This document shows positions 6,890 through 58,391 of a stretch of 64,000 bases of DNA, piece by piece. The DNA comes from Fibrobacterota bacterium (GTDB taxonomy: Bacteria; Fibrobacterota; Fibrobacteria; UBA11236; JADFYW01), in NCBI GenBank assembly GCA_042567505.1, contig JBHPJW010000006.1, positions 1,828 to 65,827 of the forward strand, in the 5' to 3' direction. The position numbers and the translations under genes were made by a program. Under the pieces are notes generated by a model that did no database searches, was not told where the DNA came from, and saw only the letters and a list, made by a program, of their open reading frames with translations. How positions within the stretch are numbered: the stretch's first letter is position 1; each line of letters begins with the position of its first letter.

Positions 6890-6961
6890 TTATGAATTCT
6901 GGATTATAAATTCTGAATCAGGTGATAGACCATCAAGGGAAAGAGGCCAGAAGAAAGAAGA

Positions 6962-7046
6962 CAGTAGTGGTCAGGAATCAGGAGTCAGATTGCATACCTG
7001 CCTCACTGACCCCTGAACCCTGGCAACTGACTCCTCAAACGCCTAA
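6962..7046 (+). repeat. ~85-nt CAGGAGTCAG-heptad intergenic element inside the peptide ABC transporter operon (between the ATPase genes)
   Basis: gtagtggtcaggaatcaggagtcagat...cactgacccctgaaccctggcaactgactcctcaaacgcctaagg; collinear with 39015-39095; reverse-complement copy at 14570-14603. Confidence 0.75.
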
Positions 7047-7052
7047 GGAATA

Positions 7053-8063
7053 ATGAAGACAGCCATGCAGACACTGGTAGAAGCAAAAAACCTGGTAAAG
7101 AAATTTTCTCTGGGAGACTCGGAATTCCTGGCTGTGGACGATGTCAGCCTGGAAATAAAACCGGGTAAGACCTACGGACTGGTGGGAGAAAGCGCTTGTG
7201 GTAAATCAACCGTGGCCCTTTCGCTTCTGGCACTGCAAACGGTTGATTCCGGGGAGGTCTGGTTCAACGGCAAGAATATACTGGCTCTGCCGAAACCACG
7301 GTTGAGAGAGCTCAGGCGTCATATCAGGTTGCTTTTTCAGAATCCCGAAGCAGTGCTAAACAGCGGCATGACCGTCAGCCAGGTTCTGTATGAGGAACTG
7401 GAAAAAGAAAAAGAAATGAGCAGGCAGCAAAAGCAGGAATTAATCTGGCAGACTATTAAGCAGGTCGGTCTGAACGAGGGACATCTGCTCAGGCATCCTC
7501 CGGGTTTAAGCACCGGTGAGAAGCAGAGGGCGGCGATTGCCAGGGCTATTATTACCCGGCCTAAATTCCTGGTATGTGATGAGCCTGTCGCAAGCCTGGA
7601 TATGTCACTGAAATCCAGTATCATAGAACTTTTAATGGACCTTCAGTACCAATTGGATTTGTCTTATCTGTATATTTCTCATAATCTGGGACTGGTGAGA
7701 AAGATGGCCCATAATATTGGGATAATGTACATGGGCAACCTGGTGGAAGAGGCTCCTGTGGAGTTTTTCACTGTACACAGGGTTCTGCACCCTTATTCTA
7801 AATTGTTACTGGCCTCCGTACCCAGCACATTTCCCGATGAGTTCCATGAGATTTTAAAAGATTACCCTGACGTGGAACCCAGCCGGTTCCAGGAGGGATG
7901 TCCTTTCCGTAATCGCTGTCCTTTCTATCTTTCCAATCCCATCAGGCCCTGTGAGACCAGGAACCCGCGCCTGGTGAACCATGGAGATAATAGAAAAGTG
8001 GCCTGTCATCAGGTCAAGAGCGCGGTGTACAAGGGGCTGTGGGGGTTGTCAACTGGTGTATAA
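7053..8063 (+). CDS. ABC transporter ATP-binding protein (OppF/DppF-like) with C-terminal oligopeptide-transporter extension
   Basis: Walker A GESACGKST; signature LSTGEKQR; Walker B LVCDEP; C-terminal Cys-containing tail as in OppF. Confidence 0.9.
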   Translation: MKTAMQTLVEAKNLVKKFSLGDSEFLAVDDVSLEIKPGKTYGLVGESACGKSTVALSLLALQTVDSGEVWFNGKNILALPKPRLRELRRHIRLLFQNPEAVLNSGMTVSQVLYEELEKEKEMSRQQKQELIWQTIKQVGLNEGHLLRHPPGLSTGEKQRAAIARAIITRPKFLVCDEPVASLDMSLKSSIIELLMDLQYQLDLSYLYISHNLGLVRKMAHNIGIMYMGNLVEEAPVEFFTVHRVLHPYSKLLLASVPSTFPDEFHEILKDYPDVEPSRFQEGCPFRNRCPFYLSNPIRPCETRNPRLVNHGDNRKVACHQVKSAVYKGLWGLSTGV

Positions 8064-8100
8064 TCCGCTTATCACTTATTAAGATATACTTGATATATCG

Positions 8101-8132
8101 GCGTACCAGCGGTACGCCGCTGGCATGCCGTT
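8101..8132. repeat. variant palindromic element (cggcgtacc-agc-ggtacgccg) after the second ABC ATPase gene
   Basis: cggcgtaccagcggtacgccgctggcatgccg. Confidence 0.55.
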
Positions 8133-8155
8133 AAATATATAGAGGCAATCTTTGG

Positions 8156-13145: not shown

Positions 13146-13212
13146 TTACACCTCGATATTTATCATAAGGTAGTTTTTTTTAGATAGTGAGGTATAGATT
13201 ATGGATATATTC

Positions 13213-13255
13213 AGGTGTCAGGTGTCAGGTGTCAGGTGTCAGGTGTCAGGTGTGA
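13213..13255. repeat. tandem heptanucleotide repeat (CAGGTGT)x6
   Basis: caggtgtcaggtgtcaggtgtcaggtgtcaggtgtcaggtgtgagg read directly. Confidence 0.9.
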
Positions 13256-13447
13256 GGCTCTCGATCTTGTCATGCCGGACTTGATCCGGCATCTTTCCCA
13301 GGTAATCTTGGTAGTAATTTACCAAGGCAAGACGCTGGGTCTGTGCCCGGTGTGACAGGTGATGGCGACTATCTCTTTTCTCCTTACTCCCCACTCCTTA
13401 CTACCAGAGCCCAGTACTCCATCACTCTAGTATTCTCCAGAGTTACA

Positions 13448-14185
13448 TCACCTGGGAATCGTCAACACCTGACCTGGGAATATGAGATCCGGATTCTTAA
13501 TAAGGTGCTCGTTGGCCCGGTATATTTCCGGCCACCGTTCCGGATCTCCGAATATTTCCGGCTTCTCTGCGATGTGCCATAGGCAGTCCCTATCTCCCGG
13601 CACCTCCCGGACCGTATAGGTGTCGGCCATTGGGATAGAAGAGTTGGCCGGTTCTCCTGGTTGCCCGGCATCGCTCAATGTCTGTTCCTTTGCATGTCTG
13701 GCATCGCTCAACGCCTGTTCCCTTGCCTGCCGTGAATCGCTAAATGACTGTTCCATACCAGTAAAATGCTCTTCCAGCCTGGGAATAATAGCGGCTTTAT
13801 GTTTCCTGAGCCCGGCCAGGTTTTTTTCCCCCTCTGTTATGGCTTTGTCCCATACGAATAGGTCTTCGGAATACTGAGAGGAAAAGGTATTTACGTCTGT
13901 TTTCAGCTCATCAAGCTGATTGATAAATTCATCGTATTCCTGCTGTGTTATGCCTGCTACGGAAAGAATTTCCCTCCATAGTTTCTGAGATTTTTCCCTT
14001 AATTCTTTTAGTTCCAATTTAAGGGCTGCAATTCTGGTTTTTAACTTGGCGATTTTCGGCAGTGCGGATTCTTCTCTGGTTTTAGCATCATTCAACTGTT
14101 CTTGGTAGCTTTCATAGGTCATTTCCTCTGCGGCCAGGGATATGACAAGCGCTAAAAAAATTATTGAAGGTTTCCTGGTCACACT
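13448..14185 (-). CDS. LysM-domain protein with coiled-coil region and signal peptide
   Basis: C-terminal LysM (DCLWHIAEKPEIFGDPERWPEIYRANEHLIKNPDLIFPGQVLTIP); internal repeat QAREQALSDARHAKEQTLSDA; start assigned to GTG giving VTRKPSIIFLALVISLAAEE signal. Confidence 0.6.
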   Translation of the reverse strand, partial: SVTRKPSIIFLALVISLAAEEMTYESYQEQLNDAKTREESALPKIAKLKTRIAALKLELKELREKSQKLWREILSVAGITQQEYDEFINQLDELKTDVNTFSSQYSEDLFVWDKAITEGEKNLAGLRKHKAAIIPRLEEHFTGMEQSFSDSRQAREQALSDARHAKEQTLSDAGQPGEPANSSIPMADTYTVREVPGDRDCLWHIAEKPEIFGDPERWPEIYRANEHLIKNPDLIFPGQVLTIPR

Positions 14186-14189
14186 TTCC

Positions 14190-14411
14190 CTACCGCCCCT
14201 TTTTTTGCTTGACCATTTCCAGTTCCGCTTGGTTCCGCTCCAGAATTTGGTTTTCTTCTTCGCGCTCCGCCTCGAGCCTGGATAGATCTGCCTCCAGCAG
14301 TCTGACCTGGTCTTCTGCCGTGGTGGCAGCATCTTTTGACTGTTCCAAGTCGTCCATTTCCGCCGGAGAAGGTTTCTTAGCGCAGGCACAGACAATGAAG
14401 AGAAAGATAAC
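14190..14411 (-). pseudogene. small coiled-coil lipoprotein-like ORF lacking a canonical start codon (abuts tRNA-Asp)
   Basis: Reading frame ...AVIFLFIVCACAKKPSPAEMDDLEQSKD...LEAEREEENQILERNQAELEM; upstream part of the six-frame ORF is just the tRNA-Asp sequence translated; no ATG/GTG/TTG found after the tRNA. Confidence 0.3.
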
Positions 14412-14439
14412 GGCGCAGGAGAAATGGGTGAGAAGAAGA

Positions 14440-14518
14440 TGGCGGAATGGACGAGACTTGAACTCGCAACCCCCTGCGTGACAGGCAGGTACTCTAACCA
14501 ATTGAGCTACCACTCCGC
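14440..14518 (-). tRNA. tRNA-Asp (GTC)
   Basis: Reverse complement gcggagtggtagctcaattggttagagtacctgcctgtcacgcagggggttgcgagttcaagtctcgtccattccgcca: cloverleaf, anticodon loop cTGTCAc, encoded CCA. Confidence 0.9.
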
Positions 14519-14529
14519 ATATTCAGAAT

Positions 14530-14645
14530 TAAGGTTTCAGTTTTCAGGGGTCAGTTAGGTAAGTATCCGATCTGACTCCTGACTCCTGATTCCTGACCAC
14601 TACAGTCCTCTAACTTCTGACTCCTTATTTCTCACTCTTCTCAAA
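14530..14645 (-). repeat. inter-tRNA copy of the CAGGAGTCAG-heptad intergenic element
   Basis: atctgactcctgactcctgattcctgaccactac is the reverse complement of the 6965-6991 copy; further ctgactcc/ctcactc heptads. Confidence 0.7.
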
Positions 14646-14647
14646 AA

Positions 14648-14722
14648 ATGGGCACTGTAAGATTTGAACTTACGACCCTCTGCTTGTAAGGCAGATGCTC
14701 TGAACCAACTGAGCTAAGCGCC
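14648..14722 (-). tRNA. tRNA-Val (TAC)
   Basis: Reverse complement gggcgcttagctcagttggttcagagcatctgccttacaagcagagggtcgtaagttcaaatcttacagtgccca: anticodon loop cTTACAa, CCA encoded. Confidence 0.9.
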
Positions 14723-14935
14723 CTTTTCCTTATCATTATCCTTGTTGTTTTTATGCCACATGATAGCTACCGGAAAAACCACACAATAGGCAATACATAA
14801 AATTATGGGGGCCACGGTCATTGACCAAACGCTGTTTACCGGAGGTCTCGAAAGAGCGTAAAACCCGATAATAAGTAACCCCAGACCTATTAAGAAAAGG
14901 ACATAATTATTTTTTCCAAAGAAACTATCCTGCAT
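14714..14935 (-). CDS. small two-TM membrane protein (hypothetical)
   Basis: 73-aa ORF with two hydrophobic helices and K/D-rich tail; overlaps the tRNA-Val 5' end by 9 nt. Confidence 0.35.
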   Translation of the reverse strand: MQDSFFGKNNYVLFLIGLGLLIIGFYALSRPPVNSVWSMTVAPIILCIAYCVVFPVAIMWHKNNKDNDKEKGA

Positions 14936-18649: not shown

Positions 18650-21600
18650 CTATTCCAGCGTAAAGGCGTCCAGGTTGCCTCCGGCGGTGCCGAATATCAC
18701 CAGACCGGCATCCTCGCTTATCCAGGGACCGGCGTCAGCGTCGTCAGAAGCGTCGCTGTAGGGCCAATTGGTCATGGTTGCGGCGCTGGAGGCGTTGTCG
18801 TCTATGGCATAATATCGCCCTCCCTGCCGGCCGAAGTACACAACGGTGTCCCAGGGCAGGGGAGCTGCGTTTACGGTATCCAGTGCGTCATAAGCCCAGT
18901 CGACAGTGGCCGCTATGCCTGAGCCGTTGTCGGATACTTTCTTCACGTTGTTTTCCACAGCAACGTAGATGTCTCCGGTGTTGGCGGTGTCGTCGGAGGT
19001 CTTTCCCATAATAAAGGCCGGGCCGGTGTTGGCGGTACCCAGGTTCACGGAAGTGGGAGACCATTTAAACGACCAGGTGGAAATAGTGATGGCGTACAGG
19101 CTGGAGGTGGCGGGTGTCACATAAAGCGTGTTCCTGTCCACCAGCAGGGGCAGCTGAACGTCTGTGCCCATGTTGATACCGGCGCCGGTCTGGGTTCCGT
19201 CGTAATCATACTTGTAGACATATCCGCCCCCGCCCGTGGCCGTGGCGACATATATCTCATCATTTTTTACCACGAGGTCCGCGCTCAGGCTGACGTCGGC
19301 CAGGTTCACCGGCCATCCGCTCATGGTGGAATCATTAATGTAATTATACCTTGTTATGTAGTTTGTATAGGTAATAAAAAACGTGGAGTCGTCCGGGCTG
19401 GCATAGGGATTGCCCGCCGTGGCGTTGAGATCAAGGGGCGTGAAGACTTCGGAAGAGGAAGAAATATCATCCTGCCTGCCTATCACGTATTCTCCGGCTG
19501 AAGCGAAGATCTTGTATTTGCTTACGTCCGTGTCGTAGACATAAGTGGGCATGTTGCATGCCCCGTATGCCGAGGTGGAAAAAAACCATTTCTGCTGCCC
19601 GTCGCTCAAATTATAGCTGAAGAGCCTGTTAACGCCGGATCCTGTGCCTATATAAATCCGGTTCTCGGTAATGGCCCCGCCCTGCACAGGGCCCAGGCCT
19701 GTCTTGCTCCATGCTGCGGCCACCATATTCTTGGTGTAATTGTCTATGGAAGCAGTGGAGTCGCCGTTTCCGATGGCGTCGAAGGCCCAGATTTTGAAGT
19801 AATACAAGGTGTTTATACTCAGTCCGGTGATGGTGGTGGAGGTGGTGGCAGCTGACGTCAGGGCGCCGTCGTCGCCATCGTCCCATTCCGTGCCGGAGCT
19901 GTCCCGCGCCTCTGCCAGGGTGGTGCCGTACCAGATCTCATAGTGATCAAAGTTCCGGTCCGTGGCTGCGGTCCACCCCAGGGTAACCGTGGTGCCCGTG
20001 GAGTCCGATCCCGCCAGGGAGGCCAGCCCGGCCGGAATTTTGGTATCGATGGCAAAAGTATCGCTTTCGGTGGTGTCCCTATTGGATGAGCCGTCGGTGG
20101 CTATCACCCGGACCAGGTACACGGTATCTGTGTTGGGCAGGTCCGTGTCGACGTCCCAGAGGATGGTATCATTTCCCGTGGCCGAGGTGTCTATGCCCGT
20201 GCCTATGTCCCCGGAAGTGGTTTCCAGGCTGTCATTGCTGTCCCAGCTGCCGCCGTAGAGCTTGTACTCCACTTTTATGTCTACCGTGCCGTCATTGGCG
20301 TCATCAACCTCATACCCCACTCTCACGCTGTCTGGGTGGTATTGGGCGGCATTGACATAAGGCGCGTCATCCCATCCCGTCACCACTGGATCATTTGTGG
20401 CCAGGGTGGTGGTGTTTACGTCAGTATCCGTGTCCTCATTGCCCATGGAATCCAGAGCCCATATCTTAAAGTAATAGGTGGAGGAGGGAATGAGCGAAGT
20501 GATATTGGTGGTGTCGGTGGCCATGGTGGCCAGGGATGCGTCATTGTCCTGGTCCCATTCCAGGGCCGTTCCGGTGCGGCCCTGGACGTCCGACTGGCTG
20601 GTGCCATACCAAATTTCATAATGGGAAAAATGGGATTCGCTGCTGGTAACCGTCCAGGAAAGCCCCACGTCGGTGGCATTTGTGGCCCCAACTGTCAGGC
20701 CGGCCAGTCCCGAGGGGTCCACCAGGTCTATATCAAAGCTGCCGGAGACCGTGGTGTCTGTATTGCTGTCGTCGTCGATGCAGTGGACCCTGACGTTATA
20801 GGCGGCGTCTGTGGTACCGGGGATCAAATCAGTGTATACGTCCCACTGCAGGGTGTCATCTATGCTCGCTCCCGTAGAAATGGTATCGTAATCCCCGGAA
20901 AGCGTGGACGGGTTTGTCCAGGAACAGGAGCTCGCCAGGCAGTATTGCAGCGAACAGACGGCCGTGGTATCGTTGTCATCGCTTACCTCATAGCCCACCC
21001 GGACCGTGCCGGAGTCTATTTGCTCGGCGTCAACCTGGGCGGCCTGGTCCCAGCCCGTGACCGTGGGCGCCGGGTCATCCAGGGTGGTTGTGCTGTCCCC
21101 TGTTATCGTAGCTTCGTTATTCATGGCATCCACGGCCCAGATTTTAAAATGATACTTGGTGGAAGGGCTCAAACCGGTAACAATCATGCTGGTGGTGGCT
21201 ATGTCCTTCATGCCGTTGTTGTTGTCCCCGTCCCATTCCAGGGCTGATCCGTTGCGGTTTTCCACTTCGCTTTTAGAAGAACCGTACCAGATTTCATAGT
21301 GGTCGAAATGTCCTTCATCGGATAATGCCGTCCAGGAAAAACTCACTGAAGTGCTTAAAGGATCCACCACGGCAAAGTCGGCCAGCCCCACCGGAGATTT
21401 GGTGTCCAGGCCGAAGGCCGCGCTCTGCGCGGTGTCGGCCAGCCCGCCGTCACTGGCGATGACGCGCACGTAATAGGTGCCGTCTATGGCATCGCCCAGT
21501 TGGTCACGAACGCTCCATCTAATGGTACGATCGGCGTACTCATTGGTGGCGTCCACTCCGGCGCCTATGTTCCCGGCGGTATCGGTGGCGGCGGTCCAGG

Positions 21601-24370
21601 ACCCCCCGTCCGGCTTGTATTGCAGGGTCACGGTAACTGTGGCGTCGTACTGGTCATAGACCTCGTACTGGATGGTGGCGGAATCCGTCTCGTCTTGCGA
21701 AGCAGTCACGGTACTGGTCGCCCCCAGTCCCGTGACCTGGGGAGGATAAAGCACATAGGTCACCTCCACGTACGGAACGTTGGCCCCTTCGGAAGCGTGG
21801 AAATTCTTATAGGATTCGTTGGTCCCTTCGGCATTGGAGATGAACACCATGCCATAATTGGCGCTATCGCCCGAGTGCCAGTCCTTAAAGGTCTGGGTTA
21901 TGTCCCAGGTATACCAGCCGGTGTTTCCCACCGAGGCGCTCACCACAGAGGCTGATCGGTCATTTCCCTCGGATCCTACGCCGGCCGTGGTCCAGGTGTT
22001 TTCATCGGCGTATTCGGTCCAGTTGCTCATGTTGGCCTGGTCCTGGCCCGTTCCAGTTCCCTCATTCCAGTCCCTCAATACCCTGTAGAGAGTGATGGTC
22101 TGGTTGGTGGCGCTGCCCACCGACCCGCAATAGGACTTAAATTCAGCCAGGAGAACAGTGGCCCCGGTGGGCACATCGCTGAAATCATTCACCTTCACCA
22201 GGGAGCGCATAACGTAGCTGCCGCCCCCGCCGGAACCGACCTTGCCTGCCGTGGCCCCGCCCCGCGTGGCGTCATTGCCGTAATTATAACTGGTATTTAA
22301 GTTTTCTATCATATTGTCATCAAGGTCGGTGAGCTGGACCACTGAATCCGCGTCTGTTTCGGCCAGGGTGGTGACGGCCGTATCGTTGATAGCCGTTTCG
22401 TTGCCGTAATCATCCATGGCCCATACCTGGAAGTAGTATGTTCTTTCGGCCAGCAGGCCGGTGATGGTGGTGGAAGTAGTGGCAGCGCTGGCAAGATTGC
22501 TGTCGTCCGGATCGTTGTCCCATTCCGCCGCGTTGCTGCGGTTCTGCACGCTGGTGGAATCTATGCCGTACCATACTTCATAATGATTGAAATTCCCGTC
22601 TGTGGCGGCGCTGGACCAGCTCAGGGCCACGGTGCTCATGGTGGTGTCGGTGGACGAGAGCGTGGCGGAAAAGGAGGGAACCTCGGTGTCTATGATGAAT
22701 TCCGCCGTAGCCGCCGTATCGATATTGCTGCCATCGTCCTCGGCCAGAATCCTGATGTAAGCAGTGGTGTCTGTTGAGCCGAACTGGGTGCGCACGTCCC
22801 AGTAGACAGAAAGGTCTTCCACCATGTCGACCGCGACTGAACCGGTGTCCCCGTCGGTATTGGCCTTGAAGTCGGCCCAGGCGGTCCAGGAGGCATCGTC
22901 CTTGAGTTTCATTTCCATGGTTACGGTGATGGCGGAATCGTCCTGGTCCCAGGCCTCGTATTTCACCTGTACGCTGTCGGTGTTTATCTGCACCGCCACC
23001 GGATCGACGATGGGGTCCCATCCCGTGATGAGCGGAACTACCGAGGTGAGGGTGTTGGCGCTGTCGGGATCCGTGGTCATTTCGTTGCCGGTTGAGTCTA
23101 TGGCCCATAACTTGAAATAATACTTGGTGTTGTATTCCAGCAGGATTACCTGGGCGCTGTCCGTGGAAATAGTGTTCATGACAGCGTAATCATCCGGGTC
23201 CCATACATACGCCGATACGTTCCTTTCTTCCACATTGGTGAGGTTGGTCCCGTACCAGATCTCATACTTGCTGAAATGGGCCTCGCTGGCCACGGTCCAT
23301 TCCAGGTCCACCGTAGAAAAACCCGAGTCCACCACAGTGAAATCCGCCAGGGAAACGGGGTCCCTGGTATCGATTACAAAGGAAGAGGTGCTTACCGTGT
23401 CCGCGTATCCCTCATCATCGGTGGCTATTGCCCTGACTATGTAGCTGCTGTCAATGCCGGACCCCAGCTGAGCATAGGCGTCCCATACAATGACCCGGTC
23501 CGAGGATGAGGAATTGGCTTCCACGCTGCCTATGTCCCCGGAGGTATTTGTGAGTGCAGTCCAGCCGCCGGCTCCGCCCACCTGGTACTGGGCCGTTATA
23601 GTCACATTATCATCGTCGCTGTCGCTGACTTCATAGGAAATATTTACCGTACTGGTGTCCTCCTGGTCTCCGGTGGCGTTGGCCCCGGAGCTGAGGCCGG
23701 TTATGACCGGCAGTACTCTATACCATACATCGAGGTATGGCTTGTTGGACCCGGCGTCCAGTGAGTTGAAATTCTTTCTCAGATCATCCGCTTCGGTGCC
23801 TTCCAGGATGAGCCCGTAATTAGTTAAATCGCCGTCAACCCAATCCTGAGCAGCTCCTGTCACCCGCCATTTGAACCAGGTGGAGGTGGCGTTTATCACC
23901 ACAGAGTCATAGGCCGAGGCCCCGCGGTCAGTCCCGGCCGTGGCGGCGCCGCTTGCATCCCAGGTGGAAACGTTATGTTTGTTTGAGTTCCAGCTGACCG
24001 CGCCGTCCTGTTCGGCGCCGTCTGCGCTGCCTTCCAGCCAGTCCTGCAGCAGGTGGTATACCCAGATTGATTCAGGGCTGGCCACATCTTCGCCTGAGCA
24101 ATACAGTGCCAGGTCAGCACTGTCTATGACGGCATCGCTGGGCAGGGTGTCGTCTATGGGGAAATTGATGACAATCCGGTAGGGTCCCCTATTCGCTAAA
24201 GCCTCCGTGGTTATGTATCCCAGATACAGGGTGGAGGAGCCCCCATAGTTGTCATCTGCGGATTTATCATTGATATGGGCGTCATTTCCAATGGTAAACT
24301 GCTTGTAAGTGGCCTGGCACAGGCTGCCTAATATGGCAATCATAAGCCCTGTTTTTAAAACCTTATGCAT
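18650..24370 (-). CDS. giant (1906 aa) secreted modular surface protein: two copies of a ~150-aa N-terminal module, at least 5 alternating Ig-like/FN3-like domain pairs, C-terminal PQQ-like beta-propeller
   Basis: Signal peptide. FN3-like repeats anchored by H(F/Y)xxYEIWYG...YYFK(I/L)WA(I/V)D. Second repeat type anchored by (V/I)TGWD...YEV.D.D...Y.VR(I/V)(I/H)A. Module with LY/VYxxLxDW(N/L)EG...NYG(L/M)...PY(L/V)(D/E)V occurs twice. C-terminal WxF/DGxxKW propeller blades. Long internal DNA direct repeats. Confidence 0.8.
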   Translation of the reverse strand: MHKVLKTGLMIAILGSLCQATYKQFTIGNDAHINDKSADDNYGGSSTLYLGYITTEALANRGPYRIVINFPIDDTLPSDAVIDSADLALYCSGEDVASPESIWVYHLLQDWLEGSADGAEQDGAVSWNSNKHNVSTWDASGAATAGTDRGASAYDSVVINATSTWFKWRVTGAAQDWVDGDLTNYGLILEGTEADDLRKNFNSLDAGSNKPYLDVWYRVLPVITGLSSGANATGDQEDTSTVNISYEVSDSDDDNVTITAQYQVGGAGGWTALTNTSGDIGSVEANSSSSDRVIVWDAYAQLGSGIDSSYIVRAIATDDEGYADTVSTSSFVIDTRDPVSLADFTVVDSGFSTVDLEWTVASEAHFSKYEIWYGTNLTNVEERNVSAYVWDPDDYAVMNTISTDSAQVILLEYNTKYYFKLWAIDSTGNEMTTDPDSANTLTSVVPLITGWDPIVDPVAVQINTDSVQVKYEAWDQDDSAITVTMEMKLKDDASWTAWADFKANTDGDTGSVAVDMVEDLSVYWDVRTQFGSTDTTAYIRILAEDDGSNIDTAATAEFIIDTEVPSFSATLSSTDTTMSTVALSWSSAATDGNFNHYEVWYGIDSTSVQNRSNAAEWDNDPDDSNLASAATTSTTITGLLAERTYYFQVWAMDDYGNETAINDTAVTTLAETDADSVVQLTDLDDNMIENLNTSYNYGNDATRGGATAGKVGSGGGGSYVMRSLVKVNDFSDVPTGATVLLAEFKSYCGSVGSATNQTITLYRVLRDWNEGTGTGQDQANMSNWTEYADENTWTTAGVGSEGNDRSASVVSASVGNTGWYTWDITQTFKDWHSGDSANYGMVFISNAEGTNESYKNFHASEGANVPYVEVTYVLYPPQVTGLGATSTVTASQDETDSATIQYEVYDQYDATVTVTLQYKPDGGSWTAATDTAGNIGAGVDATNEYADRTIRWSVRDQLGDAIDGTYYVRVIASDGGLADTAQSAAFGLDTKSPVGLADFAVVDPLSTSVSFSWTALSDEGHFDHYEIWYGSSKSEVENRNGSALEWDGDNNNGMKDIATTSMIVTGLSPSTKYHFKIWAVDAMNNEATITGDSTTTLDDPAPTVTGWDQAAQVDAEQIDSGTVRVGYEVSDDNDTTAVCSLQYCLASSCSWTNPSTLSGDYDTISTGASIDDTLQWDVYTDLIPGTTDAAYNVRVHCIDDDSNTDTTVSGSFDIDLVDPSGLAGLTVGATNATDVGLSWTVTSSESHFSHYEIWYGTSQSDVQGRTGTALEWDQDNDASLATMATDTTNITSLIPSSTYYFKIWALDSMGNEDTDTDVNTTTLATNDPVVTGWDDAPYVNAAQYHPDSVRVGYEVDDANDGTVDIKVEYKLYGGSWDSNDSLETTSGDIGTGIDTSATGNDTILWDVDTDLPNTDTVYLVRVIATDGSSNRDTTESDTFAIDTKIPAGLASLAGSDSTGTTVTLGWTAATDRNFDHYEIWYGTTLAEARDSSGTEWDDGDDGALTSAATTSTTITGLSINTLYYFKIWAFDAIGNGDSTASIDNYTKNMVAAAWSKTGLGPVQGGAITENRIYIGTGSGVNRLFSYNLSDGQQKWFFSTSAYGACNMPTYVYDTDVSKYKIFASAGEYVIGRQDDISSSSEVFTPLDLNATAGNPYASPDDSTFFITYTNYITRYNYINDSTMSGWPVNLADVSLSADLVVKNDEIYVATATGGGGYVYKYDYDGTQTGAGINMGTDVQLPLLVDRNTLYVTPATSSLYAITISTWSFKWSPTSVNLGTANTGPAFIMGKTSDDTANTGDIYVAVENNVKKVSDNGSGIAATVDWAYDALDTVNAAPLPWDTVVYFGRQGGRYYAIDDNASSAATMTNWPYSDASDDADAGPWISEDAGLVIFGTAGGNLDAFTLE

Positions 24371-24739: not shown

Positions 24740-25095
24740 AATGAGTCCGGTGATTGAAATTGAAGATGCCAAGCCGGTCCCGGCCTGAAGTCTCAGATAA
24801 GACAGCGGCCGGCTGTATATGAGCAAAGGTCCAGGCACCGGTTGGCAAAAAGTTATGGTTATAAAGATTTCGTACTGTGAGAAGGTTGAAGGCCAACCGG
24901 CGCCGGAGGCACAATGCAGATAAGACAGCGGCCGGCTGATTATCTGGGAAAAGCCGGACATCGGTTGGCAAAAAGATATGGTTATAAAAAGTTCGTACTG
25001 TGAGAAGGTTGAAGGCCAACCGGCACCCTAAGAACAATGCAGATAAGACAGCGGCCGGCTGTTTATGAGCAAAGGTCCGGACACCGGTTGGTTTT
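24740..25095. repeat. ~3.5 tandem copies of a 123-bp repeat (each with an internal 9-bp-stem hairpin ccggttggc...gccaaccgg) immediately upstream of the XRE gene
   Basis: Units begin cagataagacagcggccggctg at 24794, 24917 and 25040 (~85% identity); partial unit at 24740-24793; inverted copy of the core (agccggccgctgtc) at 25278-25291. Confidence 0.85.
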
Positions 25096-25667
25096 AAGAA
25101 GCTGATAAAAACTGACTTGACACGGATAGTATGAAGCGGATGGCAGAGCAGGTCTCTCGCCATCAGGAACCGGGATTTTTGTGGATTGAATGGAAAGCGA
25201 ATGCTACCGAAGATTTTTAACCTTACAGGTACTGCAAGTTTTGTGAGCACACGGAAAAACGTGTGATAAAAGAGAAAGCCGGCCGCTGTCATACTTTATA
25301 TCTGTCGATCTTTTTAGATCGGAAAAATTATGTCTATTTATTTCAAGTATACAGCAAATAGGCTGTATGTGCCACGTAATAAGTATATTTATGATATTCA
25401 TCATAATGTAATTATAAGAACAGTTTATTGCTTTCTCAAAACTTTGCTTTTTTGTGTTATAATTCGGGATTGTTATACATCAAAGAACACCAAAAAACAA
25501 ATAAATTCAAATATCAATAATATTGGTTTTAGGCCTGTGATTACGAACCTGGTTGAGGTAAATCCAGCTGATGCTTATCTACTGGGCCTTGGACAGACCG
25601 GCAAAAGGGAAGGTTTTTTGTGGAATTAAATTGGAACGTACTTAATCAGGGATGATTAAAGGCAGTT

Positions 25668-36450: not shown

Positions 36451-38910
36451 TTGCCGGTTTTTAAATTACTTTTCGCCTGCCTCTTGATTTGGTTTTCACT
36501 CGGCCATTCCCAAGAACTGTTTCAGTTGGAAACTGAAGACGTCCTGCCTGTGGACAGTCTTGGCCTGGATACGGATACAGTCGCGGCTGACTCGGGTATT
36601 GCGGGAGACACCATTTCCTGGTCCAGCCGGACATTTCACTATGACGCTCAAAAGGAGAAGTTTTCTCTTTATAATTCTGCGGTGCTCAACTACAAGGGGG
36701 CTAACCTCAGGGCGGACACCATATTTCTTGACAATAAGGCGCAGATGGTGGCGGCTTTCGGCCGTCCAGTGATAAAAGACCGGGACCAGCCGGAAATCAT
36801 AGGCTACCGGTTGAAATACAACCATTCCAGACAGGTAGGGGAAATCTATTACGGGACCACCAGGAGGGATAACCAGATGTTCAACGGCGTAGAGGTGAGA
36901 AGGCAGAAGACGGGGGAAATACACATTGCCCGGGGGGACTTTTCCACCTGCGATCACCTGGAGGACCAGCACTTTTATTTTTACTGCCGCCGCATGGTGC
37001 TTGAGCCCAACAAAAAAGTGATGGCCAGACCGGTGGTGCTGAATGTGAGCAATGTGCCGGTGGCGGTGGCTCCCATGCTGGTTATTCCGCTGGGAAAGGG
37101 GCGGCGCTCGGGTTTTACCCGCCCTAAGATCGGAGGGGACCAATCCCAGGGTTTCTATATGCGTGATCTGGGATATTACTGGAGCATGAATGACTACATG
37201 GACTTGCAGCTGTTCGGCGACCTGATTGAGGGGGAAAGGGGCACCTTTGATAAAACCAATGTCCGGGGACTGTATTACTACAACAAGCGGGACGTTTTAA
37301 GCGGGAACCTGGGAGGTAACGCATACATCAGTGAGTTTAATCCGGGGAACTCCGGATGGGAAATAAACTTTGCCCATGATCAGAACCTGACCCCGGACGG
37401 GGTGCAGAAGTTAAAGGGCGGCGGAAGGTTTGTCTCCAGCCGGAACGTTCTGGGTGAGGCCCTGAATGAGAAAGAGGCCGTTAATCAGACAGCCAACGCC
37501 CGCCTGGGATATACCAATACTCTGGACTGGAACAAGGCACGTCTGAACATAAGCGGGGTGCAGGACTATAATCTGACCACCGGACAGCAGACCAGGGAAC
37601 TTCCCAGGGCCAGTTTTGCCTTTGGGGCCCCGCTTTTTCCCATCGCTGAAAATCACTACTGGGATTTTGAATCAGCAGAGGCGGATGAACCCCCCTGGTT
37701 TAAGCAATTGTACCAGGAGATAAATTATTCCTATTCGGGTGATTTCAGCATATATACCGAAAAGAAACCCGCCTTGGGGGGGGCTGTGGCCGGAGACTCC
37801 AACACTTATGCGGGAGCCAAAAATGTTCTCGGCCTTTCGGCCAAATACCCCTTATTACAATACATAAACGTTGTTCCGACCATAAACAGTCAGCATTACT
37901 GGAACCTGCACTCTTCCATCGCCTCCGGCGGCGGGCCAAAAGCCGATTTTATGCCTTCCCAGGGCAGGATAGGCGACAATGTGTATAAGTTCAATATGGG
38001 GGTGTCGGCAAACACCAAGTTATACGGCATCGCCCAGCCGGACCTGGGGCGCTGGGAAAAAATCCGTCACGTGGTCTCTCCGACCATAGGATATACCTAT
38101 GCCCCTGAGATTGACACGAACAGGACTTTTGTGGCCCATCCCAAATTCAATACCGCGGCCTATCAACTTCGTTCTAAAAGAGTGAATTTGGGCCTGGGAA
38201 ATGATGTGGACATTAAAATCCAGTCCAGTGATACAGCTGCCGGTAAACCTGAGCCCAATGGCCTGAAGATCCTGGCAACCAGCTCAAACATAAGTTATGA
38301 TTTTGAAAAAGAGAAAAGGGACGGCAGGGGCTGGTCGGATATCTCGTCAACGGTCCGAACGGAAATACTTCAGAAACACATTCCCATCAGTGTCAGTATG
38401 ACCCACAGACCCTACAATGATTACGGCCCTGCCGGGCCGGAAAATCAGGTTGTGACGCCCATATTAACAGCTTACAGTTTCAACTGGAGGAAAGATGTCT
38501 CAATAAACGGGAAAATGAATTCCGGACTCTGGGAGCCCGCAAAAGATACTACAGATACTCCGGAATTCACGCGCCTTCCCTGGTCGGCTAAGGTGTTTTA
38601 CAGCTTTAATTACAGCGCCAAACGGGTGAGCGCCACAACTTTCCAGAAGACCTTGACGCATTCATTTTCCGGCAGCATGAATTTTAATCCCAGCCCAAAG
38701 TGGGAAATGTCTTATAACACGAACTATAATTTTACCGAAGGGGAATTTTCCAAGCATTCCTTTGAATTCAACCGGGTCCTGCACTGCTGGAAGATGAAGT
38801 TTTCCTGGACTCCGGTCGGACCCGCCTCAGGCTGGCAGTTCAATATATACGTGATAGACATTCCCGACATTAAGCTCGAGAGCGCGCATACCAATCTCAA
38901 GAAGAGATAG
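36451..38910 (+). CDS. large outer-membrane beta-barrel protein, LptD/OstA-like (LPS assembly) candidate
   Basis: Signal peptide; N-terminal OstA-like segment (YNSAVLNYKGANLRADTIFLDNKAQMVAAFGRPV); ~820 aa with aromatic-rich beta strands and terminal aromatic residue pattern. Confidence 0.5.
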   Translation: MPVFKLLFACLLIWFSLGHSQELFQLETEDVLPVDSLGLDTDTVAADSGIAGDTISWSSRTFHYDAQKEKFSLYNSAVLNYKGANLRADTIFLDNKAQMVAAFGRPVIKDRDQPEIIGYRLKYNHSRQVGEIYYGTTRRDNQMFNGVEVRRQKTGEIHIARGDFSTCDHLEDQHFYFYCRRMVLEPNKKVMARPVVLNVSNVPVAVAPMLVIPLGKGRRSGFTRPKIGGDQSQGFYMRDLGYYWSMNDYMDLQLFGDLIEGERGTFDKTNVRGLYYYNKRDVLSGNLGGNAYISEFNPGNSGWEINFAHDQNLTPDGVQKLKGGGRFVSSRNVLGEALNEKEAVNQTANARLGYTNTLDWNKARLNISGVQDYNLTTGQQTRELPRASFAFGAPLFPIAENHYWDFESAEADEPPWFKQLYQEINYSYSGDFSIYTEKKPALGGAVAGDSNTYAGAKNVLGLSAKYPLLQYINVVPTINSQHYWNLHSSIASGGGPKADFMPSQGRIGDNVYKFNMGVSANTKLYGIAQPDLGRWEKIRHVVSPTIGYTYAPEIDTNRTFVAHPKFNTAAYQLRSKRVNLGLGNDVDIKIQSSDTAAGKPEPNGLKILATSSNISYDFEKEKRDGRGWSDISSTVRTEILQKHIPISVSMTHRPYNDYGPAGPENQVVTPILTAYSFNWRKDVSINGKMNSGLWEPAKDTTDTPEFTRLPWSAKVFYSFNYSAKRVSATTFQKTLTHSFSGSMNFNPSPKWEMSYNTNYNFTEGEFSKHSFEFNRVLHCWKMKFSWTPVGPASGWQFNIYVIDIPDIKLESAHTNLKKR

Positions 38911-38912
38911 TA

Positions 38913-38937
38913 GCGGGGTGGCGTTGGCACGCCGAAA
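38913..38937. repeat. variant copy of the GGCGTGCC..GGCACGCC palindromic element
   Basis: gcggggtggcgttggcacgccgaaac directly after the LptD-like stop. Confidence 0.5.
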
Positions 38938-39014
38938 CAATCGAATATCCGATCATTCGAACAATCAAATGACGAAAGTAGAAAGAGATTCCAGAGGACA
39001 GAGGTCAGAGCAAC

Positions 39015-39095
39015 AGAGTGGTCAGGAGTCAGACAGTAATCGTACCAAACTGACCACTGACCCCAGATCACTGACTCCTCAATTACTCAAGGATA
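39015..39095 (+). repeat. copy of the ~85-nt CAGGAGTCAG-heptad intergenic element
   Basis: agtggtcaggagtcagac...aactgaccactgaccccagatcactgactcctcaattactcaagg is collinear with 6962-7046. Confidence 0.75.
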
Positions 39096-40554: not shown

Positions 40555-40578
40555 ACGTCCCGGCAGGGAAGACAGTGG

Positions 40579-40608
40579 AGATTGTAGCGGCGTGCCGGCG
40601 GCACGCCG
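40579..40608. repeat. palindromic element GGCGTGCC-GGC-GGCACGCC (REP/terminator-like)
   Basis: tagcggcgtgccggcggcacgccgttataaa, 25 nt after the SBP stop. Confidence 0.7.
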
Positions 40609-41119
40609 TTATAAATATTTATTGAACAACAACTTACAAGACGTTTCCCAGGTCGATTGGCAAGCGTGGGTTCCTGATGAAAGAGCTGTCCTGTGTTTTG
40701 TGGAAGACGGAGACAGGGTCATGCTTATCCACAAAAAGACCGGATTGGGAGCGGGAAAGATTAATGCCCCGGGCGGCAGGATCAAACCCGGGGAATCAGC
40801 AGAGGCCGCAGCCATTCGGGAAACCATTGAAGAGACCGGGATAACCCCGTCTGAAACGAAGAAAGCAGGGGAGCTTTCATTTATCTTCACCAATGGATAT
40901 GCACTGCATGGCGAAGTCTTCTTTGCCAGCAGCTATTCTGGTTCGCTCATAACCACACCAGAGGCAGATCCCTTCTGGTGCGACAAGGATAAAATCCCCT
41001 ATGACAAAATGTGGGAAGACGACAGATACTGGCTGCCCCTGGCGCTGGAAGGTAAATACTTTCGCGGATTTTTCATCTTTGATGATGAGGTGATGTTGAG
41101 CCATAGGATTGAAGTGTGA
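40592..41119 (+). CDS. Nudix (MutT-family) hydrolase
   Basis: Nudix box GGRIKPGESAEAAAIRETIEETGI. Confidence 0.85.
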   Translation: MPAARRYKYLLNNNLQDVSQVDWQAWVPDERAVLCFVEDGDRVMLIHKKTGLGAGKINAPGGRIKPGESAEAAAIRETIEETGITPSETKKAGELSFIFTNGYALHGEVFFASSYSGSLITTPEADPFWCDKDKIPYDKMWEDDRYWLPLALEGKYFRGFFIFDDEVMLSHRIEV

Positions 41120-44854: not shown

Positions 44855-45155
44855 CCACTTTGGTAAGTGGTAAAAGGTAAGTGGTAAGTGGTCTCAAAAG
44901 TAGCTTTACTCTGTCATTCCCTGCCTCTCGATTTCACTCGAGATAAACTCCGGCAGGGAATCTTCTAGCTCCGATGTGGCCGAATTATTAAAACGCCTCA
45001 TCGGAAGTTGAGGATCTTCCGCTGGAGCCTGCCTTCCGCGAAGGCGGGAGGCGGAAGATGACACATGGTTGGGACTTTTGAGACAGTCTCTAGTAAAGGG
45101 TTCAGAATTTTTACCAAGATGGTTTTATACCACATCACTTACCACTTACCACTTA
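44855..45155. mobile_element. ~300-bp structured intergenic element with terminal inverted heptad repeats (MITE-like or structured ncRNA)
   Basis: Left end tggtaagtggtaaaaggtaagtggtaagtggtctcaaaagt; right end acttttgagac...cacttaccacttaccacttaccaa; internal hairpins (ttccctgcc/ggcagggaa; cttccgc/gcggaag). Confidence 0.5.
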
Positions 45156-45227
45156 CCAACCAGAACCCATTACTCCACCACTCCATCACTCCAAAGGATC
45201 ATCACCTAAAGGTTTGACAAAACAACC

Positions 45228-52639: not shown

Positions 52640-52713
52640 AAGGGCATGTAGCTCAGTTGGTTAGAGCACCGCTCTGATAAGGCGGTGGTCGGAAGTTCAA
52701 ATCTTCCCATGCC
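52640..52713 (+). tRNA. tRNA-Ile (GAT)
   Basis: gggcatgtagctcagttggttagagcaccgctctgataaggcgg...; anticodon loop cTGATAa; CCA not encoded. Confidence 0.9.
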
Positions 52714-52723
52714 CAGGTTTCAG

Positions 52724-52762
52724 GAGTCAGTCAAATTGCCGTCTGACTCCTGGAGACGTGGG
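52724..52762. repeat. hairpin built from the CAGGAGTCAG motif between tRNA-Ile and tRNA-Ala
   Basis: caggagtcagtcaaattgccgtctgactcctgg. Confidence 0.7.
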
Positions 52763-52835
52763 GTTATAGCTCAGTTGGTAGAGCACCTGCTTTGCACGCA
52801 GGGGGTCAGGAGTTCGACTCTCCTTAACTCCACCA
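52760..52835 (+). tRNA. tRNA-Ala (TGC)
   Basis: ggggttatagctcagttggtagagcacctgctttgcacgcagg...; anticodon loop tTTGCAc; CCA encoded. Confidence 0.9.
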
Positions 52836-52858
52836 CCTCGCTTCATCCGAAAAATATT

Positions 52859-52888
52859 AGTAACGGCGTGCCGGCGGCACGCCGCTAC
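52859..52888. repeat. palindromic element GGCGTGCC-GGC-GGCACGCC
   Basis: taacggcgtgccggcggcacgccgctac directly after tRNA-Ala. Confidence 0.7.
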
Positions 52889-52958
52889 AATTTCAATTTT
52901 TTCATGGATAGGGGGATCGAGAGAGTGGGGGGACTCCTGACCACTTTCTACTCCCCCA

Positions 52959-57401: not shown

Positions 57402-57454
57402 GTATCCCACTTGGGGAATAATCGCCAGGAAGATTACCCACATTCAACTGATGA

Positions 57455-57484
57455 TTTGTAACGGCGTGCAGATAGCACGCCGTT
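57455..57484. repeat. variant palindromic element (aacggcgtgc-agat-agcacgccgtt) between the convergent nagB-side gene and rplQ
   Basis: gtaacggcgtgcagatagcacgccgttac. Confidence 0.65.
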
Positions 57485-58286
57485 ACTTTTCTTTTTTATC
57501 TGAATCCGCGTCCGCCTTTTCCTTAACCTGACCGTCAGTTTTTTCTTCGGTCTTCGCTGCTTTTTTAGGCTTGGTCTCTTCCTCTTTCGCAGTTTTTTCA
57601 TCGGATGTTTTGGCGGGTTTTGCTGCTTTCGCTTCAGTCTTTTTTGTCGAATCAGGTTTAGCCTTCGGTGCCTTTTCTTCTGACTCAATTGGGTCAGGAT
57701 TTTCCTCTGATTTAGCCTGAGGAGCCTTTTTAGAGGCTTTGGGTGTATCAGAAGCTTTTTGTTTTACTGTTTTTGCTTGCTCAGAGTCCGCCTGGCCGCT
57801 CTCTTCAGCCTGCTTATTCTCATCCATTATTTTGTCAGCTTTAGTTTTTTTGGCCACAGGCTTCTTTTTCGGCTTGGATTTCTTCTTCGGTCTGGGCGTG
57901 ATTTCATCCTCCACCAGTGATATGATTGCCATTTCAGCATTGTCACCATGACGCCTGGAAGAGACTTTCAATATTCGGGTATACCCACCTTTGCGGTTCT
58001 GGTACCGATCGCCAAGAATGTCAAAAAGCCCCTGAAGGACATTTTTGTCTTTTATAAAACGGGCAGCCTGTCTTCTGGCAGAGAGGTCGCCTTTTTTTCC
58101 GTAGGTGATAAGCCTGTCAACAAGGCCCCTGACCGCTTTAGCCTTGGGAAGAGTGGTTTTTACCTGCCGTTGCAACTGCTCATCAACCAATCCTTTTAAA
58201 AGTATTGAAGTGGCAAGATTATTGAGCATGGCCCTGCGATGGTTTCTGTGCCGGCCCAGCTTAGCTGTTTTTACTCCGTGTCTCAT
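57483..58286 (-). CDS. rplQ: 50S ribosomal protein L17 with ~140-aa K/A/E-rich C-terminal extension
   Basis: L17 core MRHGVKTAKLGRHRNHRRAMLNNLATSIL...GGYTRILKVSSRRHGDNAEMAIISLVE followed by histone-H1-like low-complexity tail. Confidence 0.9.
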   Translation of the reverse strand: MRHGVKTAKLGRHRNHRRAMLNNLATSILLKGLVDEQLQRQVKTTLPKAKAVRGLVDRLITYGKKGDLSARRQAARFIKDKNVLQGLFDILGDRYQNRKGGYTRILKVSSRRHGDNAEMAIISLVEDEITPRPKKKSKPKKKPVAKKTKADKIMDENKQAEESGQADSEQAKTVKQKASDTPKASKKAPQAKSEENPDPIESEEKAPKAKPDSTKKTEAKAAKPAKTSDEKTAKEEETKPKKAAKTEEKTDGQVKEKADADSDKKEK

Positions 58287-58289
58287 GAT

Positions 58290-58385
58290 ATTTTAGTGGG
58301 GAGTTATGAGTGGGGAGCGGGGAGTTTTAACACTCCCTACTCATAACTCCCTACTCCCTACTCCTTACTTATAATTCCTAACTCC
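58290..58385. repeat. hairpin and heptad-repeat element between rpoA and rplQ
   Basis: gtggggagttatgagtggggagcggggagtt ttaacactccctactcataactccctactccctactcc: 19-bp inverted repeat plus (CTCCCTA) heptads. Confidence 0.7.
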
Positions 58386-58391
58386 TTTAAA

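Follow-up and report, generated by a model that had tools for sequence, protein, structure and literature searches.

Hairpin-forming heptanucleotide repeats in intergenic spacers of a Fibrobacterota genome

The window analysed in this study, a stretch of 64 kb (64,000 nucleotides) from the genome of an uncultured member of the Fibrobacterota, contains four hairpin-forming repeats: three long copies of ~105 nt each (A, B and C), in which NNNTCAG units lie opposite CTGANNN units, and one minimal hairpin (D). The first-pass annotation had reported a dispersed intergenic element at four sites, all of which were recovered at or near the coordinates given. The neighbouring genes that it had named (two peptide-transporter ATPase genes, an LptD-like and a solute-binding-protein gene, and two tRNA pairs) were correct, and its question whether the copies are always intergenic was answered in the affirmative, A-D being non-genic throughout. 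The sites and their parts are as follows.

6942-7049, plus strand: copy A, in the 163-nt oppD-oppF spacer, between two ABC_tran and oligo_HPY ATPase genes
6942-6967, plus strand: copy A, purine-rich NNNNCAG units
6968-6988, plus strand: copy A, left arm, TGGTCAG GAATCAG GAGTCAG
6989-7005, plus strand: copy A, loop, 17 nt
7006-7033, plus strand: copy A, right arm, CTGACCC CTGAACC CTGGCAA CTGACTC, followed by CTCAA...AAGGA
38986-39093, plus strand: copy B, between the LptD_2 gene and the SBP_bac_8 solute-binding-protein gene
39019-39032, plus strand: copy B, left arm
39033-39049, plus strand: copy B, loop, 17 nt
39050-39077, plus strand: copy B, right arm, followed by CTCAA...AAGGA
14522-14634, minus strand: copy C, most of the 132-nt spacer between tRNA-Val(TAC) and tRNA-Asp(GTC)
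14572-14599, minus strand (plus-strand coordinates): copy C, left arm
14555-14571, minus strand (plus-strand coordinates): copy C, loop, 17 nt
14530-14554, minus strand (plus-strand coordinates): copy C, right arm, degenerate
52719-52754, no strand assigned: hairpin D, in the 44-nt spacer between tRNA-Ile(GAT) and tRNA-Ala(TGC)

The long copies have one layout in common, in which a purine-rich NNNNCAG region is followed by a left arm of 2-4 NNNTCAG units (TGGTCAG, GAATCAG, GAGTCAG), a loop of 17 nt in all three cases and a right arm of CTGANNN units. Written as heptamers, the arm units GGAGTCA, GTGGTCA and GGAATCA stand opposite complementary units across the loop. The heptad basis proposed earlier is retained, but the decamer described with it is not a unit and merely represents 1.4 heptamers (GGAGTCA and variants). 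Likewise, A and B are collinear as described, but their similarity begins ~20 nt farther upstream (at 6942 and 38986, respectively), in the purine-rich NNNNCAG region. Copy A ends 3 nt short of the oppF start codon (ATG at 7053). Copy B is located between the LptD_2 stop codon (38910), which is followed by a GC-rich, REP-like hairpin (38904-38942), and the start of the solute-binding-protein gene (39202). Copy C, which lacks the distal ACTGACTCCTCAA...AAGG part, lies between two minus-strand genes, tRNA-Val (14649-14723) and tRNA-Asp (14440-14516). Hairpin D has the unit of A-C without their loop or flanks; it consists of a 12-bp stem and a 12-nt loop, with perfectly complementary decamer arms (52721-52730 and 52743-52752). 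The tetranucleotide GTAG immediately precedes the left arm in A and C, and GAG is found in this position in B. A candidate internal promoter (CTGACT-16-AATAAT, 7027-7054) was rejected, as it overlaps the oppF start codon and thus cannot serve oppF.

Copies A, B and C show a single common polarity relative to the flanking genes, C being reversed along with its tRNA genes. Polarity in the sense of a purine-rich arm that comes first was discarded, since any inverted repeat reads so on both strands; it is definable only by the loop, the flanks and the A-C/G-U asymmetry of the arms. Around hairpin D, the tRNA-Ile(GAT)-tRNA-Ala(TGC) pair (52642-52835) is isolated, with prmC on one side and an AraC-family gene on the other, and has a promoter-like site and a terminator-like hairpin of its own. 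This tRNA pair is usually located in the rRNA spacer. No rRNA was detected in the window, and an assignment of hairpin D to the V2 helix of an rRNA spacer was rejected on this ground and on that of the prmC/AraC-family setting. Next to tRNA-Asp lies a region of ~1.3 kb (13146-14439) without a Pfam-supported gene, in which arrays of TCAGGTG (x6.7) and CTCCTTA units accompany a 33-nt tandem repeat (13662-13754); an open reading frame of 315 aa called within this region may not be real.

The motif CAGGAGTCAG was found 20 times in the window at <=1 mismatch, compared to 2.95 +/- 1.77 expected occurrences (maximum of 8 in 100 shuffles). The phased motifs TCAG-N3-TCAG and CTGA-N3-CTGA together occur 16 times, compared to ~1.8 expected, and all 16 occurrences fall into five non-genic loci (A, B, C, D and an array at 13211), with a non-genic share of ~15% in the window as a whole. 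Pairwise BLASTN comparison yielded 74.5% identity over 98 nt for A and C (E=1.3e-14, 68 bits), 65.7% over 108 nt for A and B (E=1.9e-9, 51 bits) and E=0.005 for A and D. The alignment of A, B and C has a mean column identity of 75%, and its gaps measure exactly 7 and 14 nt. The loops of A and C are identical at 12/17 positions. A profile of the three copies, used with nhmmer, retrieved no additional copy from the 64-kb window, to which all copy counts refer.

If the sites were unrelated and alike only by chance or low complexity, one would point to the low-complexity arms and to the similarity of A to hairpins of unrelated genomes and other phyla, which reaches up to 55 bits, so that the A-B match (51 bits) is no higher. 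Only the A-C pair (68 bits) exceeds this generic hairpin background. Because the A-B similarity does not stand out from that of unrelated hairpins, the kinship of B rests on the 17-nt loop (8-10 of 17 positions identical), on the 13-mer ACTGACTCCTCAA, which is identical in A and B and placed 38 nt from AGGAGTCAG in both, and on the AAGGA that follows this 13-mer in both copies. A chance or low-complexity origin is nevertheless refuted by the motif counts, which lie well beyond those of shuffled sequences, and by the A-C match, which includes the identities in the non-repetitive loop. It is also opposed by the equal loop length of all three copies and the equal offset of the 13-mer, and we regard it as scarcely credible. 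The earlier claim of sequence conservation across unrelated loci was borne out by the same counts and the same match.

A lag scan of the window identified 20 periodic windows at lag 7 (>=24/28) and none at any other lag between 4 and 12; no tandem arrays were found at lags 5-11 other than 7. With TRF, repeats of period 7 were obtained at 14572-14597 (3.7 copies), 39049-39075 (3.9 copies), 13211-13257 (6.7 copies) and other sites. The heptamer arrays with other units are likewise non-genic.

13207-13260, plus strand: (TCAGGTG) x6.7 array, a TCAG-phased heptamer with a different variable part, non-genic
58295-58386, no strand assigned: GGGGAGT / ACTCCCY heptamer hairpin, rpoA-rplQ spacer of the alpha operon
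44860-44892 and 45130-45163, no strand assigned: inverted heptamer arrays GGTAAGT and ACTTACC, respectively, between convergent genes
48179: AGTAGGG heptamer array, non-genic

The GGTAAGT and ACTTACC arrays flank an imperfect palindrome of ~195 nt (44891-45084; self inverted match with E=2e-13), and the entire structure (44860-45163) sits between convergent HD-domain and M28 peptidase genes. The only Rfam match of the rpoA-rplQ hairpin was to a microRNA, spurious and below threshold. In total, five lag-7 arrays were counted in the window, none in ~92 kb of sequence from relatives (a Fibrobacteria metagenome-assembled genome (MAG) and two other relatives) and two in 1.33 Mb of unrelated loci. 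Heptamer arrays are thus a habit of the source genome and not of its relatives, and the repeat noted in the first-pass annotation is one case of this genome-wide habit of 7-nt repetition, which the annotation did not recognise.

Two further groups of repeats were observed in the window. The first is a second dispersed family, distinct from the heptamer element: a GC-rich palindrome, GTAGCGGCGTGCCGGCGGCACGCCGYTAC, that is placed just past the 3' ends of genes or tRNAs and begins with GTAG. Classical REP elements begin with GTAG. Two of its copies score as terminator-like.

8094-8140, 38904-38942, 40576-40620, 52852-52894 and 57454-57486: copies of the GC-rich palindrome GTAGCGGCGTGCCGGCGGCACGCCGYTAC

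The second consists of two stretches (13383-13453 and 45138-45207) that are 72% identical over 72 nt (E=3e-6) and located in unlinked non-genic regions beside heptamer arrays. Paralogous genes were rejected as a source of this similarity, the adjacent proteins being unrelated; the pair looks like a third small dispersed repeat.

For the proteins encoded in the window, the best genome match was the Fibrobacteria MAG, with 58-68% protein identity. Gene order is kept around two of the elements, namely at OppD/OppF (65%/68% identical) and at PhoH-tRNA-Val-tRNA-Asp. The oppD-oppF spacer measures 163 nt in the window and 31 nt, with no repeat, in the relative. The tRNA-Val/tRNA-Asp spacer downstream of PhoH measures 132 nt in the window and 9 nt in the relative, where an ordinary terminator follows. 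In this comparison of two sites (copies A and C) with one relative, the orthologous spacers are short and without the element, indicating that the elements are additions in the lineage of the window. Being lineage-specific, they are not conserved operon or tRNA processing signals, and at neither of the two orthologous sites checked is the proposed functional RNA, or RNase processing site, supported.

Elsewhere in the window, a gene for a 1906-aa protein with fibronectin-III (fn3) repeats (18650-24370; GC 0.53-0.58 compared to ~0.47 for the window) was found between aspS and the pilus secretin operon. Relatives (L098 and L100) have only a short gap at its position, so that the gene may be an insertion. 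Downstream of it, a 123-nt tandem repeat (24794-25162; 2.4-3 copies, 84% and 60% identical to the first) lies partly inside a 193-aa open reading frame without a Pfam match.

Hairpins of the same units were detected in other genomes. A signature of 21 bases that A, B and C share matched 15 metagenome contigs (GC 0.48-0.70). All 15 matches form hairpins; their arms are of the GGAGTCA/GGGGTCA type, their loops (4-31 nt) are unrelated, and several of these contigs carry further heptamer arrays. With the D-type palindrome, 17 stretches were retrieved from IMG/VR contigs, and 15 of these are heptamer hairpins. One of the metagenome contigs (L088) is Gemmataceae-like (Planctomycetota), with 71-74% identity to named proteins, and in five related contigs (proteins 91-99% identical) a hairpin of the GGAGTCA kind lies downstream of an acyl-CoA dehydrogenase gene. 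In the four contigs that fully span the spacer to the phosphonate-binding-protein gene, its length is 83, 132 or 145 nt. These spacers differ in unit counts and loops, with 49 nt (7x7) between the lengths of 83 and 132 nt. Two related contigs contain the same hairpin after the same gene end (L082, 5409-5519; L083, 519-617), directly followed by an ACGAACC-type array in the former and an AACCACT-type array in the latter; arrays of this sort thus turn over fast.

The polarity of the hairpin equals that of the neighbouring gene in ~9 of 11 determinable metagenome cases, a crude figure given the unreliable calling of open reading frames in GC-rich contigs. In L081, L084, L085, L091 and L095, a variant unit in one arm has its mirror counterpart in the other. 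An apparent same order of units in both arms (L088, L089 and copy B) was rejected, because L081, L084, L085 and L095b are mirrored and L088 forms a perfect stem of 22 bp after a shift by one unit; the same-order look is an artefact of symmetric unit orders. A tRNA gene is close to 2/4 sites in the window, to the hairpins of 3/15 metagenome contigs (beside tRNAs in L084 and L093, and twice within the 10-tRNA array of L095) and to none in the 17 IMG/VR contigs. The association with tRNA spacers, from which a role in RNA processing had been suggested, is thus seen at half of the sites in the window and becomes rare outside it; since no tRNA is near any of the 17 IMG/VR hairpins, the link is weak and suggestive only. 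The L095 array (1-1723, GC 0.62) comprises ten tRNA genes in 1.7 kb with two GGAGTCA-unit hairpins as spacers, one of them a near-perfect mirrored palindrome with a variant GGGATCA/TGATCCC unit.

Folding predictions gave -21.9 kcal/mol for hairpin D (z=-4.5). On the transcribed strand, the folds of A (z -2.2) and B (z -1.8) are modest and that of C (z -0.9) is no better than those of shuffled sequences; the opposite strand reached z -3.7, -1.8 and -3.7, respectively. This advantage of the antisense strand stems from the arm mismatches, which read as A-C in sense and as G-U in antisense orientation. The consensus fold of A, B and C comprises 22 pairs, of which 1 is compensatory, and its covariation term (+1.56, from three sequences only) is unfavourable, so that the folding and covariation check proposed earlier yielded no useful covariation and, with so few sequences, weighs little in either direction. 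In a search of the window against Rfam 15, only four tRNAs reached the gathering score, and no match overlapped A-D at E<=1, which argues against a known RNA family. The copies resemble intrinsic terminators or attenuators in that they provide a stem-loop in a transcribed spacer. Unlike these, they have no U-tract, no terminator-like site in the scan of the window overlaps any copy, and A, C and D are followed by downstream genes that need read-through; the terminator or attenuator suggested at first is not supported. By contrast, the scan scored two separate GC-rich hairpins, at 40582 and 52860, as terminator-like.

REP, BIME and ERIC elements in transcribed spacers, including those of ABC-transporter operons, can act as barriers that stabilise mRNA. 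It is conceivable, albeit unlikely in our view, that the element described here is a cis-acting RNA element under selection, serving as an RNase III/E processing site or 3'-exonuclease barrier that sets the stability or translation of cistrons or helps to separate tRNAs. All copies are located in probably transcribed spacers (the oppD-oppF junction, two tRNA spacers and a 5' leader). The tRNA-Ile/tRNA-Ala pair is preceded by a promoter-like site and followed by a terminator-like hairpin, so that D would lie within one transcript, and D itself folds well. Same-unit hairpins beside tRNAs in L084, L093 and, twice, L095, the retention of a hairpin in a Gemmataceae operon spacer across strains and the mirrored variant units in five contigs fit such a role, although copying at the DNA level within a palindrome also predicts mirrored units. 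Against it stand the two orthologous spacers of the nearest relative, both free of the element, the weak sense-strand folds and the better antisense ones, the single compensatory pair among 22 and the lack of tRNAs near the 17 IMG/VR hairpins.

No transposase, RAYT, integrase or reverse transcriptase is encoded in the 64-kb window, and neither target-site duplications nor terminal inverted repeats were found at the aligned ends of A, B and C. Their sole inverted symmetry is that of the heptamer arms, and the right end of C is degenerate. The copies consequently lack the hallmarks of a Correia- or ERIC-like MITE (terminal inverted repeats and a target-site duplication), but they do show the extragenic location, often intercistronic or at gene 3' ends, expected of REP or REPIN elements. 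REP families can number tens to hundreds of copies and are accompanied by a RAYT (Y1) transposase. REPINs have been described as palindromic intergenic elements of proteobacteria (PMC3116915). The copies are like REP, BIME, REPIN and ERIC sequences in being imperfect palindromes in extragenic, mostly transcribed DNA, ERIC being of similar size (~127 bp), and unlike them in having arms of tandem heptamers. Among the options considered initially, a REP/BIME-like element was the best fit for a dispersed, imperfectly palindromic and strictly intergenic repeat.

Three unlinked copies with a loop of equal length and related sequence, which behave as insertions when compared to the short spacers of the relative, could also be explained by a non-autonomous MITE- or REPIN-like element that is mobilised in trans, its phased heptamers being bound by a transposase whose gene lies elsewhere in the genome. 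The GTAG that precedes the left arm of A and of C resembles the tetranucleotide used by REP-associated transposases, but B has GAG at this place. Together with the missing terminal inverted repeats (apart from the arms), target-site duplications and transposase genes, the coexistence of arrays with quite different units, which suits a general habit of slippage better than a single enzyme-specific element, renders such mobility decidedly improbable.

On the sense strand, A, B and C contain 2-4 AGGAG/CAGGAG motifs at 7-nt spacing, and A stops directly before the oppF start codon. The CsrA decoy CsrB carries CAGGAUG-like heptamers. The phased CAGGAG(U) units might serve as multiple sites for an RNA- or DNA-binding protein, such as a CsrA-type GGA-binding protein or a factor that recognises the SD-like AGGAG, in keeping with the binding of S1, Csp or CsrA proposed by MacGregor 2015 for TAACTGA heptamers that immediately precede start codons (PMC4679880). 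We consider such a protein-binding array very improbable, as 2/4 sites are tRNA spacers, which are not translated, the predicted folds place the GGA motifs in stems instead of loops, and other arrays in the window have units without GGA.

The features of the element were compared with those of known heptanucleotide repeats. The STRR heptamers of heterocystous cyanobacteria are reportedly dispersed, intergenic tandem heptanucleotides with several unit families per genome (Mazel et al. 1990, as cited in PMC4692102). The STRR2 unit (TTGGTCA) is similar to the GTGGTCA unit found here. STRR were defined in cyanobacteria as direct arrays, and the present host is not a cyanobacterium. A cyanobacterial origin of the DNA was rejected, since the HIP1 sequence (GCGATCGC) does not occur in the window and the proteins are those of Fibrobacterota.

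According to Mrazek 2007, as summarised in PMC4679880, many bacteria have heptamers as their commonest class of long simple sequence repeats (SSRs), for which polymerase slippage has been suggested as the source. The GGGAATC repeats of Xanthomonas and the GGGGAYT repeats of Nostoc are imperfect tandem arrays of 7-nt units (Rehm et al. 2015, PMC4692102). In Xanthomonas, there are 70-75 convergent, stem-loop-capable pairs of heptamer arrays per genome; 89-93% of the heptamer repeats lie between genes, most are transcribed, and the study found no role for them in regulation (PMC4692102). Heptameric repeats also occur within operons, as in pecE-pecF, and related species usually keep them between the same genes, with widely varying length and sequence (PMC4692102). 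The element described here agrees with this class in its 7-nt units, intergenic bias, inverted arrays, placement in operon spacers and unit-wise variation in length; the variation in length and loop among the Gemmataceae spacers also matches the description for Xanthomonas. It differs in its GGAGTCA-type unit, which is not G4-forming, in the phylum of its host (Fibrobacterota) and in the loop and flanks that A, B and C have in common, a duplication of whole composites not being described in PMC4692102.

TAACTGA repeats of Beggiatoaceae, cyanobacteria and Bacteroidetes often lie just upstream of start codons and occur in ribosomal protein operons (MacGregor 2015, PMC4679880). They show indels in 7-nt steps between strains, a patchy spread across phyla and mixing with other heptamers, and were found in 169 direct sets as opposed to one inverted set (PMC4679880). 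The heptamer with a CTGA core (TAACTGA is TCAGTTA on the other strand) and the intergenic location are shared with the present element, whose arrays are, in contrast, inverted and hairpin-forming and differ in the three variable bases. The cyanobacterial STRR and the TAACTGA, GGGAATC and GGGGAYT repeats all favour intergenic DNA, occur within operons, vary in length by whole units and have no demonstrated function. No relevant report on the unit sequence itself was retrieved in a literature search.

The element consists of tandem units of exactly 7 nt, period 7 is over-represented in the window, the repeats avoid coding sequence, and their lengths vary by whole units; it thus fits the heptameric intergenic class on every feature tested. 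New are the Fibrobacterota host and the GGAGTCA-type unit, whereas the class itself was already known. The initial interpretation was supported in part. We propose that the element is probably a palindromic heptanucleotide intergenic repeat of the STRR/long SSR class, comparable to the inverted GGGAATC arrays of Xanthomonas, whose evolution is driven by slippage and which transcribed spacers tolerate. The sharing of loop and flanks by three copies suggests a twist, in that the whole composite hairpin with its loop, and not just the unit, appears to have been copied between spacers. Replication slippage would lengthen or shorten the arms in 7-nt steps, and the composite with its loop would have been duplicated to at least 2-3 unlinked spacers, through recombination or mobilisation in trans. 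The copies would persist since transcribed non-coding spacers tolerate them. In the mRNA of an operon or in a tRNA precursor, the element would fold as an interrupted stem-loop that does not act as a terminator; at most, it may serve as a REP/ERIC-like nuclease barrier or a substrate of RNase III that uncouples the stability of the flanking segments, and any such effect on RNA would be incidental rather than selected.

This proposal of a tolerated, slippage-evolving repeat has to accommodate several observations that do not favour it. The window encodes no mobilising enzyme, the copies have no target-site duplication or terminal inverted repeat, and B is no closer to A than hairpins of other phyla are. 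Moreover, the maintenance of a hairpin at one Gemmataceae operon spacer across strains, the common polarity of A, B and C and the tRNA adjacency of some copies could each reflect selection rather than tolerance. Slippage alone is insufficient to explain identical units in two phyla. As a speculative extension, to which we attach little weight, hairpins with a CTGA/TCAG core (GGAGTCA here and in Gemmataceae, TAACTGA in Beggiatoaceae, cyanobacteria and Bacteroidetes) may form one cross-phylum class that is actively directed to transcribed non-coding spacers, such as operon junctions, tRNA spacers and those of ribosomal operons, and that is either read by a conserved factor or spread by a novel copying mechanism acting via the transcript or the transcription bubble.

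Of the long simple repeats found in bacteria, heptamers form the most frequent class, and in more than 30 years their origin and function have not been explained. The lineages that carry them now include Fibrobacterota and, through the metagenome matches, Planctomycetota, and the window provides two clean comparisons of an insertion with an empty site. For genome annotation, such hairpins in operon and tRNA spacers are to be regarded as neither terminators nor small RNA genes. Should they persist genome-wide, the proximity to tRNAs and the shared polarity, weak as these signals are, would suggest an origin linked to transcription or a function of these repeats that merits testing.
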